Source: an uncultured Candidatus Saccharibacteria bacterium
GTDB taxonomy: Bacteria > Patescibacteriota > Minisyncoccia > CAYZDR01
Length of the DNA stretch: 28,745 nt
Assembly (NCBI GenBank): GCA_964515525.1
Contig: CAZEUY010000003.1
Span: forward strand, 1 to 28,745
Direction of reading: 5' to 3'
Shown piece after piece: positions 11,172 to 26,751 of this stretch. Numbering within the stretch: position 1 is the stretch's first letter; each line of letters starts with the position of its first letter. The notes below the pieces were generated by a model that saw only the letters and a list, made by a program, of their open reading frames with translations, ran no database searches and was not told where the DNA came from. The position numbers were made by a program, and so were the translations under genes.

Positions 11172-12263
11172 ATGGATAAAGAAAAGAAAATAGCAGTTTT
11201 ATTTTCCGGAGGGGTTGACTCTGTTGTTGTGACCAAAATGATGCAGGAACAGGGGTTTTTGTGTGAGCTTTTTTTCATGAAAACGGACTTTTTTTCAGAA
11301 AATATAGTCAAAAAAGCTGAAGAATCAGCGAAGATATTGGGACTAAAAATAAATATCATTGACCTTTCAAAAGAGTTCCAACAAAATGTTATAGAATATT
11401 TTAAGAAAGAATATCAGAACAATAGGACACCCAATCCGTGTGTGATGTGCAATAAGACAATGAAGTTTGGGTTGCTGTTTGATAAAGTTAGGAAGCTGGG
11501 GTTTGATAAAATAATTACAGGACACTATGTGAAAAATTTCAAATTTCAAATTTCATCCCAAGTCATGCGACGGGACAAGAATTTCAAAAAAAACGATAAA
11601 CAGCGAACCGAGTATCAACTGGAAGTTGCGGAAGATAGAAAAAAAGATCAGAGTTATTTTTTGTGGAATTTGACGCAGGAGCAGTTGGGGTATTTAGAAT
11701 TTCCAGTTGGAGGGATGCAGAAAAGTGAAGTTATTAAAATTGCGAAAGAGTTAGGCATTCCATTCGCGGATGAAGAAAGTCAAGATATATGTTTTTTAGA
11801 TGGAGATCACAATAAGTTTTTGCAAGAACATCTAAATCTGAAACAGGGAGAAATTAAAAACAAACAAGGAGAAGTTTTAGGAGAACATTTTGGATTACCA
11901 CTTTACACGATTGGACAAAGGAGATGGATTAAGATCGGTGGGACGGGACCGTATTATGTTTTAAGAAAAGACATCTTTGAAAATACACTGTATGTGACAA
12001 ATAGTTTTGATGACCCCGATCTATATGCTGATGAATTTACGATTAGTGATGTGAATTGGATTAGTGGAAATGCGCCAAAAGCTGAAAATCTATCAGTAAA
12101 ACTTAGATATCTGCACCCAGCTGTGGATATAAAGTCTATTGAAAATAAAGAGAATGGCGAGTATAATATAGTATTAAAGGAAAAACAGAGAGCGATTACA
12201 GCGGGGCAGTCGGGAGTGGTGTATGGGGGGTGTACACTGCTTGGTGGTGGAATAATAAAATAG
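11172..12263 (+). CDS. mnmA: tRNA 2-thiouridylase MnmA
   Basis: SGGVDS, TPNPCVMCN, TGHY, KDQSYFL, ESQDICF, YTIGQR, AITAGQSGV. Confidence 0.96.
   Translation: MDKEKKIAVLFSGGVDSVVVTKMMQEQGFLCELFFMKTDFFSENIVKKAEESAKILGLKINIIDLSKEFQQNVIEYFKKEYQNNRTPNPCVMCNKTMKFGLLFDKVRKLGFDKIITGHYVKNFKFQISSQVMRRDKNFKKNDKQRTEYQLEVAEDRKKDQSYFLWNLTQEQLGYLEFPVGGMQKSEVIKIAKELGIPFADEESQDICFLDGDHNKFLQEHLNLKQGEIKNKQGEVLGEHFGLPLYTIGQRRWIKIGGTGPYYVLRKDIFENTLYVTNSFDDPDLYADEFTISDVNWISGNAPKAENLSVKLRYLHPAVDIKSIENKENGEYNIVLKEKQRAITAGQSGVVYGGCTLLGGGIIK
11535..11586. repeat. In-frame AATTTCA heptamer array interrupted by a 24-nt hairpin insert inside mnmA
   Basis: AATTTCA x3, TCCCAAGTCATGCGACGGGACAAG (11556-11579), AATTTCA. Confidence 0.8.
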
Positions 12264-12279
12264 AAAATAACCAACGGGT

Positions 12280-12535
12280 AAATTAAAAAGCTCAAATTAA
12301 AAAATCCAAAGGAATGTCAACGAGCAAATTAAAAATTAAAAATGACAAATTAAAAAGGAATATCAAAAGCTAAATTAAAAAAACAATTTGATATTTTCAC
12401 CCCGCAGGGTGATCAGCCCGCGGGCTGAGATATTTTTTCCGCCCGATACGAATATATTCGTCCGATGCGGATCAGCCTCGGGCTGAAATTCCTTTTTAAT
12501 TTTTCATTTGGATTTTGAAATTTATTTGCTTTTAA
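12280..12535. repeat. Composite nested palindromic intergenic region
   Basis: Perfect 14-bp IR 12348-12361/12488-12501 enclosing TCAGCCCGCGGGCTGA, ACGAATATATTCGT and TCAGCCTCGGGCTGA hairpins. Confidence 0.75.
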
Positions 12536-12546
12536 TATTTTTGATT

Positions 12547-24654: not shown

Positions 24655-25761
24655 ATGAGAATAGCAATCGTTCACGATTATTTAGAATATTGGGGTGGAG
24701 CAGAAAGAGTTTTGGAGACGCTTCTTGAATTGTTTCCGCAAGCGGAAGTTTTTACTTTGATCTATGACAAAGAAAAAATTGGTAAATTTATAGGGAAGAC
24801 GAAAGTTCATACATCGTTCATTAATAGATTGCCAAAATTTATTAAAAAGCGGAAACGATATTTACTCCCGATAATCCCATCACTTCCAGAAACATTTGAT
24901 TTGAGAGATTTTGATGTAGTCATATCTTCAAGTGGAGCATTTGCTAAAGGTGTGATAGTGAGACCAAAAACCGTGCATATTTGTTATTGCCATAGCCCTA
25001 TGCGTTTTGCGTGGGATTGGTATTGGCAGTATAAAAAAGAGCAGAGAAAGGGTCCGATAACTCGTGCAATGATTTGTTTGCTGACGAATTATTTGCGAGT
25101 GTGGGATTTTTCCAGTTCTCAAAGGGTAGATTATTTTATTGCAAATTCACAAAATGTTTCTGATAGAATAAAAAAATATTACAGAAAAGAAAGTAAGGTG
25201 ATTTGCCCACCAGTTGAAATTCCTTGTGATATAAAAAAATGTGATAGAGAAAATTACTTTTTAATTATTTCTAGATTATCTCCATACAAAAGGATTGATC
25301 TTGCTGTGGAGGCATTTAATAAATTAAATTTGCCTCTCATTGTAGTGGGGGATGGAAACGAGAAAAAATATCTTAAAAAGATGGCTCATTCAAACATTGA
25401 TTTTATGGGGAATGTTTCTGATCAAGAAAAGTGGGGGCTACTTGCTAATTGCAGGGCTTTGATTTTTCCGGGAGATGATGATTTCGGGATTGTGATGGCG
25501 GAGGCAATGATGATGGGGAAACCAGTTTTAGCGTTCAGAGGAGGAGGAGCGTTGGAGATTGTTCAAGAAGGGAAAACAGGAGAATTTTTTGATAGTCCAT
25601 CCGTAGAAATTTTAGCGGAAGGAGTGAAAAGATTACGAGAAAATTTTGCCAAGTATGATGCACATGTTATTAAAAAAGAAGCAGAGAAATTTTCTAAAGA
25701 GAGATTCCGTAGAGAGTTTCTGGAATATTTTCGTAGCGTGACTAATCAACTGATTAACTAA
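24655..25761 (+). CDS. GT4 glycosyltransferase (WbaZ-like)
   Basis: AIVHDYL..WGGAERVL, CYCHSPMRFAWD, SRLSPYKRIDL, DDFGIVMAEA. Confidence 0.88.
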   Translation: MRIAIVHDYLEYWGGAERVLETLLELFPQAEVFTLIYDKEKIGKFIGKTKVHTSFINRLPKFIKKRKRYLLPIIPSLPETFDLRDFDVVISSSGAFAKGVIVRPKTVHICYCHSPMRFAWDWYWQYKKEQRKGPITRAMICLLTNYLRVWDFSSSQRVDYFIANSQNVSDRIKKYYRKESKVICPPVEIPCDIKKCDRENYFLIISRLSPYKRIDLAVEAFNKLNLPLIVVGDGNEKKYLKKMAHSNIDFMGNVSDQEKWGLLANCRALIFPGDDDFGIVMAEAMMMGKPVLAFRGGGALEIVQEGKTGEFFDSPSVEILAEGVKRLRENFAKYDAHVIKKEAEKFSKERFRREFLEYFRSVTNQLIN

Positions 25762-25788
25762 TTAACTAGGCAACTAAGTAACTAGAGT
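25741..25788. repeat. Six degenerate 8-nt units spanning the GT4 stop codon
   Basis: ACTAATCA ACTGATTA ACTAATTA ACTAGGCA ACTAAGTA ACTAGAGT. Confidence 0.55.
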
Positions 25789-25794
25789 ATAAAT

Positions 25795-26751
25795 ATGATA
25801 GAGATCTTTGGAAATAAAAAAAATCAAGAATTTTTAAAAAAGAATTTAGAGGATGGTATTTTCCCACATGCCTATCTTTTTCGTGGGGCAAAACATTTGG
25901 GAAAGAAAACTTTGGCAAAACAGTTTGCGAAATCAATTCTGTGTTCAGAGGATTTAGAAAGGCACCCGGATAGTATAATTTTAGAGGGTGGGCAGGATGA
26001 AATGATTAAGAAAGTGCGAGAAATTAGAAAGAAAATATGTTTATCTCCACAACAGGCTTCTCGTAAAGTGGTAGTGTGCTATAATATAGATAGAATGCGT
26101 TTGGATGCGCTCAACACTCTTTTGAAATCATTGGAAGAGCCTTTGGCGGATGTCATTTTCATTTTGACAGCATCTCGTGAAGTTCTTCCAACTGTGGAAT
26201 CGCGTTGCGTTGTTTTGAAATTCTATCCTTTGTCAAATCATCTTATGAAAGATGTTGCGAAACAGATCGGTGTTCCTGATGATACGATTGATTCAGTCCT
26301 ATCTTTCAGTATGGGAAGGCCGGGGCTTGTCCATGGTTTTAAGAATAAATTGATTGATAAGAAATTAAGTTTTTTGTTAAATGCTGATGTAGGGGAATTG
26401 CTTGATTTTGCGACGGAGATTAGTCCTAAAAAGAAGGCTTCTGCCTTCGCTTCTGCGGAAGCTACGGCGGACAAGTCTGCGGAAGCTACGGCGGACAAGA
26501 CGGCTGACAAGACCAAAAAAGCCAAAGATAAAAAAGCAGAGAATGTAGATATAGTAGCTAACATCCAGTTCCTGTTGTATAATTGGATTGGAGAGGCGCG
26601 GGAGTTAATGCTTTCGGAGAGTTTCTCAGAGAAGGCTAAAGCTATTAATTTATTAAAAGAGCTTTTGCAGGCATACGAATCAATTAGTATGTCTGGAGCT
26701 AATGTAAAATTAATTTTAGAGAATTTATTTTTATACTCCTTCGCTAAATAA
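25795..26751 (+). CDS. DNA polymerase III delta' subunit-like (HolB-like), with in-frame repeat insertion
   Basis: HAYLFRG..HLGK, HPD, NTLLKSLEEP, LPTVESRC; no CxxC zinc module visible. Confidence 0.8.
   Translation: MIEIFGNKKNQEFLKKNLEDGIFPHAYLFRGAKHLGKKTLAKQFAKSILCSEDLERHPDSIILEGGQDEMIKKVREIRKKICLSPQQASRKVVVCYNIDRMRLDALNTLLKSLEEPLADVIFILTASREVLPTVESRCVVLKFYPLSNHLMKDVAKQIGVPDDTIDSVLSFSMGRPGLVHGFKNKLIDKKLSFLLNADVGELLDFATEISPKKKASAFASAEATADKSAEATADKTADKTKKAKDKKAENVDIVANIQFLLYNWIGEARELMLSESFSEKAKAINLLKELLQAYESISMSGANVKLILENLFLYSFAK
26440..26511. repeat. 72-nt in-frame nested insertion of three 24-nt hairpin elements
   Basis: TCTGCCTTCGCT [TCTGCGGAAGCTACGGCGGACAAG]x2 ACGGCTGACAAG; encodes SAFASAEATADKSAEATADKTADK. 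Confidence 0.85.

Follow-up and report, generated by a model that had tools for sequence, protein, structure and literature searches.

Exact, duplication-free insertion of 24–36-nt GC-rich elements in genes and repeats of a Candidatus Saccharibacteria genome

Elements in the window

The window, meaning the whole stretch of DNA analysed here (28,745 nt; contig CAZEUY010000003.1 of assembly GCA_964515525.1), is contig C3 of the genome of an uncultured Candidatus Saccharibacteria bacterium, hereafter G000, and carries short GC-rich elements that are inserted in genes, essential ones included, as well as in other repeats and in spacer DNA. The genomes of its relatives measure 0.5–1.2 Mb, in keeping with an organism of the Patescibacteria type. 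The assembly comprises 664,507 nt in 66 contigs with 35% GC, is 94% complete and, by a crude open reading frame (ORF) measure, is about 83% coding. The source runs are lake-water metagenomes, and the stretch is present in seven of them. The initial annotation of the window had flagged six stretches as one family of 24-nt units, each consisting of a CNTG tetranucleotide and a 20-nt hairpin. Direct reading found all six as written and at the positions assigned to them, apart from one unit that was offset by 1 nt (F4 below, at 3370-3393). The host genes, i.e. mnmA, a holB-like gene with a DNA_pol3_delta2 domain and a PEGA-domain gene, were borne out by Pfam. However, genome-wide searches split the flagged stretches into four families, here called F1 to F4, and the families thus number at least four and are mutually unrelated in sequence. 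The features concerned are listed below.

1..43, minus strand: partial F3 and the inverted-repeat arm next to it, truncated where the contig stops
3326..3409, unstranded: GTAG-tagged long palindrome, GTAGAACGAAT ... ATTCGTTCTAC, hosting F4 near its centre
3370..3393, plus strand: F4, 24 nt, CCGTGCCCCGTTGACTAACTGGGG, with an identical copy on C29
6885..6908, plus strand: F3, 24 nt, CCCGCCTTGGCTTGGCGAGACAGG, non-coding, placed centrally in a larger inverted repeat (cctctctcc ... ggagaggg)
11172..12263, plus strand: mnmA (Pfam tRNA_Me_trans, 7.8e-53)
11529..11593, plus strand: AAATTTC heptamer array hosting F1, a repeated region in self-BLAST
11556..11579, plus strand: F1, 24 nt, TCCCAAGTCATGCGACGGGACAAG, in frame in mnmA and encoding SQVMRRDK
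22382..22405, plus strand: 24-mer of F2 type that runs antisense to the PEGA-domain gene and corresponds to the peptide LSAVAPAE
26440..26475, plus strand: F2, 36-nt hairpin form ending CAAG, in frame within the holB-like gene's linker
26476..26499, plus strand: 24-nt tandem repeat of the F2 hairpin's final two thirds, encoding SAEATADK
26500..26511, plus strand: 12-nt partial F2 copy, encoding TADK

Occupied and empty sites

The nearly whole genome of a relative from the same genus, G002 (799,850 nt), served as the reference for empty sites; its MnmA is 82% identical to that of G000. The wider comparison took in G001, G003 and 37 more distant relatives, and the class set amounts to 41 genomes. 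In mnmA, G002 reads uninterrupted from AAATTTCA into AATTTCAAAAA, and G000 holds the 24-nt F1 exactly at that junction. Exact 24-nt empty sites were likewise observed in G002 for the F1 copies on C47, C54 and C30 (the last within a gene), for F3 on C33 and C38, and for the identical F4 copy on C29. The corresponding sites of F2 are exact 30-nt empty sites, found within a gene at C25 and, with one F2 lying in the loop of another, at C1. Target-site duplication, the lack of which had been part of the initial annotation, was seen at none of the clean sites, and their junctions are unambiguous or ambiguous by 1–2 nt. The empty sites define the inserted unit as a single 24-nt or 30-nt hairpin, not as an inverted doublet of the type known as REPIN (REP doublet forming a hairpin; REP, repetitive extragenic palindrome).

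An unbiased indel spectrum of G000 against G002 was built from clean-flank differences with the gaps parsed inside alignments; chaining adjacent BLAST segments yields no 24-nt indels, and gapped alignments absorb such indels. All five clean 24-nt indels proved to be such elements, one of them an F1 relative that is present in G002 and absent from G000. The exact 24-nt differences from orthologues that had been predicted from the window are thus found for F1, F3 and F4. At other lengths, GC-rich mini-hairpins made up 6–7 of the eight clean 30-nt indels and five of the six clean 33-nt indels, and GTAG-type long palindromes appeared as indels of 70 and 98 nt. In combination, these comparisons show that several families of 24–36-nt GC-rich elements are mobile, and that their insertion is exact and duplication-free: F1, F3 and F4 move as exact 24-nt units, and F2 as 30–36-nt units.

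Four flagged loci gave no clean empty site. The G002 comparison is too diverged at the PEGA and holB-like sites, the G002 counterpart of F3 at 6885 holds other inserts, and the G002 contig stops at the site of F4 at 3370. The PEGA copy, annotated as a 24-nt insertion, is not a 24-nt indel and lies instead within a G000-specific segment of about 99 nt, equivalent to about 33 extra codons relative to G002. For positions 26440-26511 of the holB-like gene, the nested triple insertion first proposed is less simple than one 36-nt F2 hairpin followed by a 24-nt tandem copy and a 12-nt partial copy. Tail repeats of 24 and 12 nt also follow F2 copies on C6, C49, C16, C4 and C12, and slippage explains these F2 tandem arrays as a partial contributor. 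In G002 and G001 the linker of the holB-like gene contains different GC-rich elements.

Sequence families and folding

Repeat counts in G000 are lower bounds, because assembly gaps, written as runs of N, fall on repeats, as is the case for two such runs on C33 (2521-2620 and 4319-4418). The second of these gaps is spanned by the metagenome contigs L161 and L169, which show an F1 copy in an AACTCAT array. F1 (TCCCAAGTCATGCGACGGGACAAG, 24 nt) has 11–12 copies in G000, seven of which are identical, and a variant, ATCCCAGTCATTCGACGGGACAAG. In F2, a variable tip separates the 5′ arm, YCCGCCTTCGCT, from the 3′ arm, AGCTACGGCGG, after which comes ACAAG; copies of the 3′ arm number 27 at ≤2 mismatches and 41 at ≤3. 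F3 (CCCGCCTTGGCTTGGCGAGACAGG, 24 nt) has nine copies when the variant TCCGCCTTGGCTCGTCGAGACAGG is counted, and F4 (CCGTGCCCCGTTGACTAACTGGGG, 24 nt) has two exact copies. The only features common to F1, F2 and F3 are a GC-rich foot and a 3′ G-A-C-A-R-G end, and F4, read on the opposite strand, is a hairpin followed by CACGG. The tags of the flagged elements are CTTG, CCTG and CGTG. No GT[AG]G tetranucleotide was found 5′ of the foot, none of the element sequences at the flagged loci has CGTC at its start or end, and no element matched a family in Rfam.

The elements were folded as DNA and scored (z) against shuffled sequences. The 36-nt form of F2 gave −10.4 kcal/mol (z −3.2), F4 −4.9 kcal/mol (z −2.5), F1 −2.9 kcal/mol (z −1.8) and the F1 variant −4.9 kcal/mol (z −3.0), which supports a hairpin for F1, F4 and 36-nt F2. 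The stems of F1 and F4 are of 4+3 bp, with a bulge in F4. The corresponding values were −3.6 and −2.4 kcal/mol (z −0.9 and 0.0) for two variants of F3, and −1.6 kcal/mol (z +0.1) for the 24-nt F2 unit; the hairpin format ascribed to every flagged element is thus supported by folding for the former group and not for the latter. A genome-wide search for the generic pattern, a 20-nt hairpin with a GC-rich foot followed by CANG, returned 14 matches as compared to 2.5 ± 1.5 in dinucleotide shuffles. Most of these matches are F1 copies, and a CTNG tail scores 13 against the 14 of CANG. Consequently, the pattern is enriched as proposed, but its tail contributes little specificity.

Further mini-element families were seen at 27, 30, 32, 33, 37 and 45 nt. 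Together with the 30–36-nt units of F2 and the four unrelated families, this means that 24 nt is not a universal unit length, and the claim of one family with one 24-nt format holds only in that F1, F3 and F4 are exact 24-nt units. A rival reading is that the shared format, CNTG plus a 20-nt hairpin in 24 nt, is fortuitous and reflects where unrelated repeats happened to be cut, with no common mechanism behind it. The lack of sequence similarity between F1, F4 and F2/F3 beyond the GC-rich foot and tail would fit such a coincidence, as would the spread of lengths, the equal frequency of CTNG and CANG after GC hairpins, and F3 and 24-nt F2 units that do not fold. We nevertheless regard it as improbable. 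Each of three unrelated families gave exact 24-nt empty sites, every clean 24-nt indel between the two genomes was such an element, the same six-nucleotide end recurs in F1, F2 and F3, and duplication-free insertion into similar types of target is common to all.

A 32-nt family of perfect hairpins, TCACCCCGC...GCGGGGTGA, was seen in heptamer arrays of G002 (C56:4141 and C21:2695; loci L113 and L078) and nested in a GTAG doublet of G000 (C28:6874-6993). This family, with a length that three does not divide, was seen outside genes only.

Insertion targets, reading frame and strand

The permissive insertion site of MnmA is the loop between TGHY and KDQSYF, the length of which ranges from 16 to 48 residues among 30 orthologues: it has 39 residues in G000, 16–25 in insert-free orthologues and up to 48 elsewhere. 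The array at 11529..11593 is part of an AT-rich repeat of about 65–80 nt and is itself an extra segment of this loop, present in G002 too and not in G001. Within the genus the loop is found in three versions, with heptamers and F1 in G000, heptamers and a 30-nt F2 in G002, and F2 only in G001, and many genomes of the class have heptamer arrays or GC hairpins at the same position. In distant relatives (about 40% identity) the arrays at this position are built on GAATTTC, AAATCCC, AATTTTC, AATTTCC, AAATCCG and AAAAATC; they lie at loci L005, L006, L007, L012, L016 and L022, which belong to G031, G036, G028, G040, G016 and G026, respectively. In G028 the array is interrupted by a double hairpin of 30 nt, of which the genome contains 12 copies.

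The F1a subfamily is confined to a single site, following TTTCA, in an AT-rich repeat about 80 nt long that is built on AAATTTC heptamers. G000 has eight occupied and five empty copies of this host repeat, and G002 has two, both empty and both orthologous to occupied G000 sites. Such constancy of position, within 20–40 nt of near-identical flank, favours an account in which nothing transposes and copies spread by recombination or gene conversion between occupied and empty larger repeats, with slippage in addition; tandem 24-nt and 12-nt repeats of the kind typical of slippage do occur in F2 tails, both in the holB-like gene and at other loci. As a complete explanation this is nonetheless unlikely. 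F1 is also found in unrelated flanks, namely in AACTCAT arrays, preceded there by CTCA (on C6 and in the C33 gap), and in unrelated coding sequence on C30 with its exact empty site, F3 occurs in three flank contexts, and the coding sequence around F2 at C25 is unique and has an empty site of exactly 30 nt. Conversion cannot account for the first copy at sites of this kind. Since several insertions thus lack flank homology to other copies, conversion survives as a partial contributor only, and may have spread F1a among the copies of its host repeat.

The other families have their own surroundings. F3 and F4 sit centrally in larger palindromes, as does a 33-nt F3 relative upstream of a transposase-like gene on C16 (described below), F2 units occupy the loops of further F2 copies or come after the CAAG tail of such copies, and heptamer arrays in G002 host 30–32-nt families. 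In combination, these sites show a preference for easily melted or hairpin-loop DNA and in-frame survival in permissive protein loops. The initial annotation was accordingly right that the elements are mobilised, in frame and also into other repeats, but the encoded peptides are not always of 8 residues and range from 8 to 10–12. One target tetranucleotide for all families was considered as well and rejected on the flank sequences.

Copies within long ORFs amount to 6/12 for F1, 20/27 for F2, 1/9 for F3 and 1/6 for F4. The F2 coding copies favour the phase that reads ATADK (17 of 20 copies, about 12 of 15 independent loci), and this preference suggests that selection filters the encoded peptide. 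Among 26 GC-rich mini-indels, all 14 that are coding are multiples of three, as are 8 of the 12 non-coding ones against 4 expected; the 37-nt family, like the 32-nt one, lies outside genes only. With respect to strand, the one on which the hairpin is followed by CAAG is the G-rich strand in 10/12 F1 and 37/41 F2-like copies, and the G-rich strand has the lagging-strand template sequence.

Other repeats were observed alongside these elements. Tandem 7-nt arrays occur genome-wide (AACTCAT, AGAATTA, GAATTAT, AAGTATT and AAATTTC), with one 12-mer present up to 74 times, and within the window e.g. at 17694-17756, 12252-12534, 21473-21512 and 25742-25783. They are mostly intergenic, with some in frame in genes, and they grow or shrink between G000 and G002 by indels of 21, 25, 35 and 71 nt. 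The window also contains repeats of about 170 nt at 28540-28707, starting TTACCCTGTCATTGCGAGGAGGGACGACGAAGC, and at 26726-26894, with 11 and 5 BLAST partners in the genome, respectively. On C38, two F2-like copies adjoin apparent tRNA gene ends (5505-5590).

Age and distribution

The nine F3 copies of G000 have no counterpart found in G001, G002 or G003, and F1, with 11 copies in G000, has one in G002 and none in G001 or G003; in the 37 more distant relatives F1 and F3 were essentially not found. From these counts it follows that the differences are insertions in the G000 lineage rather than deletions in G002, and the distribution shows F1 and F3 as expansions private to the species, after its split from the sister species. 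The identity of seven F1 copies points to a recent spread. Among 241 million metagenome records scanned, just 14 contigs contained the F1 24-mer, all of them belonging to the population of G000 or G002: 13 are 99.5–100% identical to G000 and one matches G002, and no longer parent element was found among these contigs. F2 differs in this respect. Its 15-nt 3′ arm was found, at ≤1 mismatch, in 20 of the 41 genomes of the class, with reversed-pattern controls near zero, and judged by this distribution F2 is, unlike F1 and F3, an old and class-wide family.

Two blocks of 2–3 kb shared by C26:3544-9446 of G000 and C2:9589-15221 of G002 are 95–99% identical, versus about 82% elsewhere, which suggests that the two species may recently have exchanged DNA. 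The hypervariable linker between these blocks holds an AGAATTA array in G002 and an AAATTTC array with F1 in G000.

Candidate enzymes and mechanism

The initial annotation listed no candidate enzyme, which is true of the window. The genome, however, has three genes similar to REP-associated tyrosine transposases (RAYT), i.e. candidate transposases of the Y1/HUH type, together with a fragment.

C16:3950-4555: RAYT-like gene, 202 residues, NF047646 at 47 bits
C4:19592-20119: RAYT-like gene, 175 residues, NF047646 at 67 bits
C21:1749-2333: RAYT-like gene, 195 residues, NF047646 at 66 bits

All three scores are below the NF047646 cut-off of 80 bits, and the PF01797 scores are 22–31 bits. The HUH motif is present in all three proteins, and those of C16 and C21 have a C-terminal motif, WQRNYYEH, with tyrosines at the expected place of the nucleophile, where C4 reads WQPRFHDH. 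G002 has one RAYT gene only, the orthologue of the C16 gene in conserved synteny, and the C4 gene lies in a segment missing from the syntenic G002 site. RAYT-like matches were found in 21 of the 41 relatives, and RAYT relatives in named genomes are spread over many phyla. Searches for TnpB (one sub-threshold zinc-ribbon match only), IS110 and reverse transcriptase were negative in the 94% complete assembly.

Palindromes of the form GTAG-GGG...CCC-CTAC lie within or next to the coding sequence of every RAYT-like gene examined, in G000, G003, G014 and G025. It thus appears that these enzymes have GTAG REPs, which are separate families in G000, as their cognate repeats; GTAGAACG of the GTAG-tagged long palindrome at 3326..3409 has 33 occurrences there. 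The C16 gene (locus L043) contains such a palindromic doublet in frame, about 120 nt long and just after the HUH motif, which is missing in the G002 orthologue. Copies of this doublet were also seen on C5, C49, C28 and C8, and an F1-like 24-mer is nested within it. The sole direct link between the elements and a RAYT gene is the 9-mer CCGTGCCCC, common to F4 and the palindrome in the C21 gene, all six genomic occurrences of which belong to F4 and to the repeats of the C21-gene palindrome.

The best explanation of the elements is that they are non-autonomous REP-like mini-elements, composed of a short GC-rich hairpin and an unpaired C-A-N-G tail, so that the opposite strand reads CNTG and then the hairpin. 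That they move as single-stranded DNA by means of a Y1/HUH enzyme supplied in trans seems somewhat more probable than not. They would then be cut and rejoined as single strands by a tyrosine transposase, for which the three RAYT-like genes elsewhere in G000 are the only candidates found. As the units are multiples of three, and GC-rich and hence stop-poor, copies in tolerant loops would survive, being read through into additional peptides. Within a gene, F2 tails would then lengthen by replication slippage in steps of 24 and 12 nt, for example in the holB-like gene. The "uncharacterised mechanism" of the initial annotation is thus too strong a description, since a hairpin with an unpaired tetranucleotide, the lack of duplication and targets prone to become single-stranded make up the substrate architecture of REP/IS200-type Y1-HUH enzymes.

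A number of observations weigh against this explanation. The F1a subfamily has a fixed position in a repeated AT-rich element and could have been spread by gene conversion, F3 and the 24-nt F2 unit alone are poor hairpins, about as poor as shuffled sequence, and the left flanks differ among families, which share no target tetranucleotide. The strand bias is confounded with gene orientation, because 19 of 20 host genes are co-oriented with replication, and it is not seen for F3 (4/9) and F4 (2/6). A CNTG-tailed element flanks none of the RAYT genes, in departure from the known recognition rule; since the palindromes of these genes are GTAG-tagged, not CNTG-tagged, we still only infer the mobilising enzyme. 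Finally, the link between F2 and RAYT is weak. The co-occurrence check proposed earlier gave a RAYT match in 10/14 genomes with F2 versus 11/27 without, a difference between kin that are not independent and too weak to use, and F2 is also present in genomes without a RAYT-like match, e.g. G026 with nine F2 matches.

The GTAG tag of the RAYT-cognate palindromes leaves some room for a different mover, either an enzyme that escaped recognition or a housekeeping function of replication or repair by which small single strands able to form hairpins are caught at forks. The elements would be mobile all the same, and the occurrence of F2 in 20/41 genomes of the class, some of them without a RAYT-like match, would fit, as would the precedent of CGTC-tagged REPs, which also lack a dedicated transposase (PMC3733652). 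We consider a mover of this kind doubtful, given that the searches for TnpB, IS110 and reverse transcriptase were negative, that an arm of F4 recurs in the palindrome of the C21 RAYT gene, and that exact ends with no duplication point to a sequence- or structure-specific nuclease-ligase, as Y1 enzymes are.

Movement by a Y1/HUH enzyme can be carried one step further, and here more tentatively. The 24-nt hairpin with its 4-nt tail might be a complete transposable unit, which a host Y1/HUH enzyme would paste as single-stranded DNA by a non-GTAG rule; the families might have settled on lengths divisible by three because no others could colonise protein loops in a genome that is >80% coding, and the class-wide F2 might reflect a conserved enzyme–substrate pair. 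To our knowledge, a single 24-nt transposable unit, if true, would be among the smallest mobile DNA described.

Comparison with known systems

The spread of REPs has been an open question for decades, and direct before/after sites are scarce. The present genome pair supplies about ten clean occupied/empty sites. What is new here is the non-GTAG tag, the single 24-nt hairpin as the moving unit and the clean before/after sites, as well as the coexistence with classical GTAG REPs and three RAYT paralogues, and the class-wide F2. The system is compact and testable, with short oligonucleotides on one side and three proteins of 175–202 residues on the other. It is also a case of selfish DNA reshaping proteins in ultra-small genomes, with loops of MnmA and of the clamp loader rewritten differently in each sister species, and for annotation it explains many odd low-complexity peptides of the candidate phyla radiation (CPR), such as ATADK, SLRLRRG and similar, as read-through repeats. 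No report of REP-like elements in CPR/Patescibacteria was found in the literature.

REPs and Rickettsia palindromic elements (RPEs), to which the elements were compared from the outset, are the right comparison. REPs are hairpins of 21–65 nt with a guide tetranucleotide at the foot and are acted on by RAYT enzymes (Quentin et al. 2018, PMC6006769), and the current model takes inverted doublets, i.e. REPINs, as the mobile unit (Bertels & Rainey 2011, PMC3116915; PMC3337134). The present elements share with the REP/REPIN-RAYT system short GC-rich hairpins with an unpaired foot tetranucleotide, tens of non-autonomous copies, RAYT-like genes in the same genome, of which the C16 gene is syntenic with its G002 orthologue, and species-private families with quick turnover. 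However, the tag is CNTG (CTTG, CCTG, CGTG) here and GT[AG]G there, the moving unit is a single 24-nt hairpin and not an inverted doublet, the three RAYT genes carry GTAG palindromes and are not flanked by CNTG-tailed elements, and half of the F1 and three quarters of the F2 copies lie within genes.

Intragenic REPs with GTAG and CGTC tags are already described, including RPE-4 and RPE-6 of Rickettsia (Di Nocera, De Gregorio & Rocco 2013, PMC3733652). They too are small tagged palindromes read through in genes, notably those of replication and repair, which here correspond to a clamp-loader subunit, but the tag, the sequences and the phylum (a CPR-like small genome) are different. In addition, the exact unit and the lack of target-site duplication are defined here by orthologous empty sites, which were not found in PMC3733652. 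The CGTC REPs have a CGTC tag, a stem of 8–9 bp, a loop of 4–5 nt and a 3-bp tail (Table 1 of PMC3733652), whereas the elements at the flagged loci have no CGTC tag and, where stems were assigned, stems of 4+3 bp.

IS200/IS605 elements prefer the lagging-strand template (PMC6006769), to which the lagging-strand template bias of the present elements can be likened, for F1 and F2 only and confounded with gene orientation. With members of this group such as IS608 and ISDra2, which transpose as single strands by 'peel and paste' (PMC6006769), the elements further share the lack of target duplication, ends made of a hairpin and a tetranucleotide and, by inference for the candidates found here, the Y1 HUH enzyme class; the insertion of F1a after a fixed TTTCA, or after CTCA in AACTCAT arrays, may be a further likeness. 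They differ in having no transposase gene inside, a single hairpin in place of distinct left and right ends, a length of 24 nt as against >600 nt, and no target tetranucleotide common across families.

The elements also resemble RPE-1, as both are selfish palindromic DNA that enters housekeeping genes in frame and is tolerated there in the form of additional surface peptides. RPE-1, a single family, is much longer and contributes many more residues, whereas the elements described here form several families of 24–36 nt. In comparison with all of these systems, the elements are an unusually small, clean form of the known REP-type repeats.

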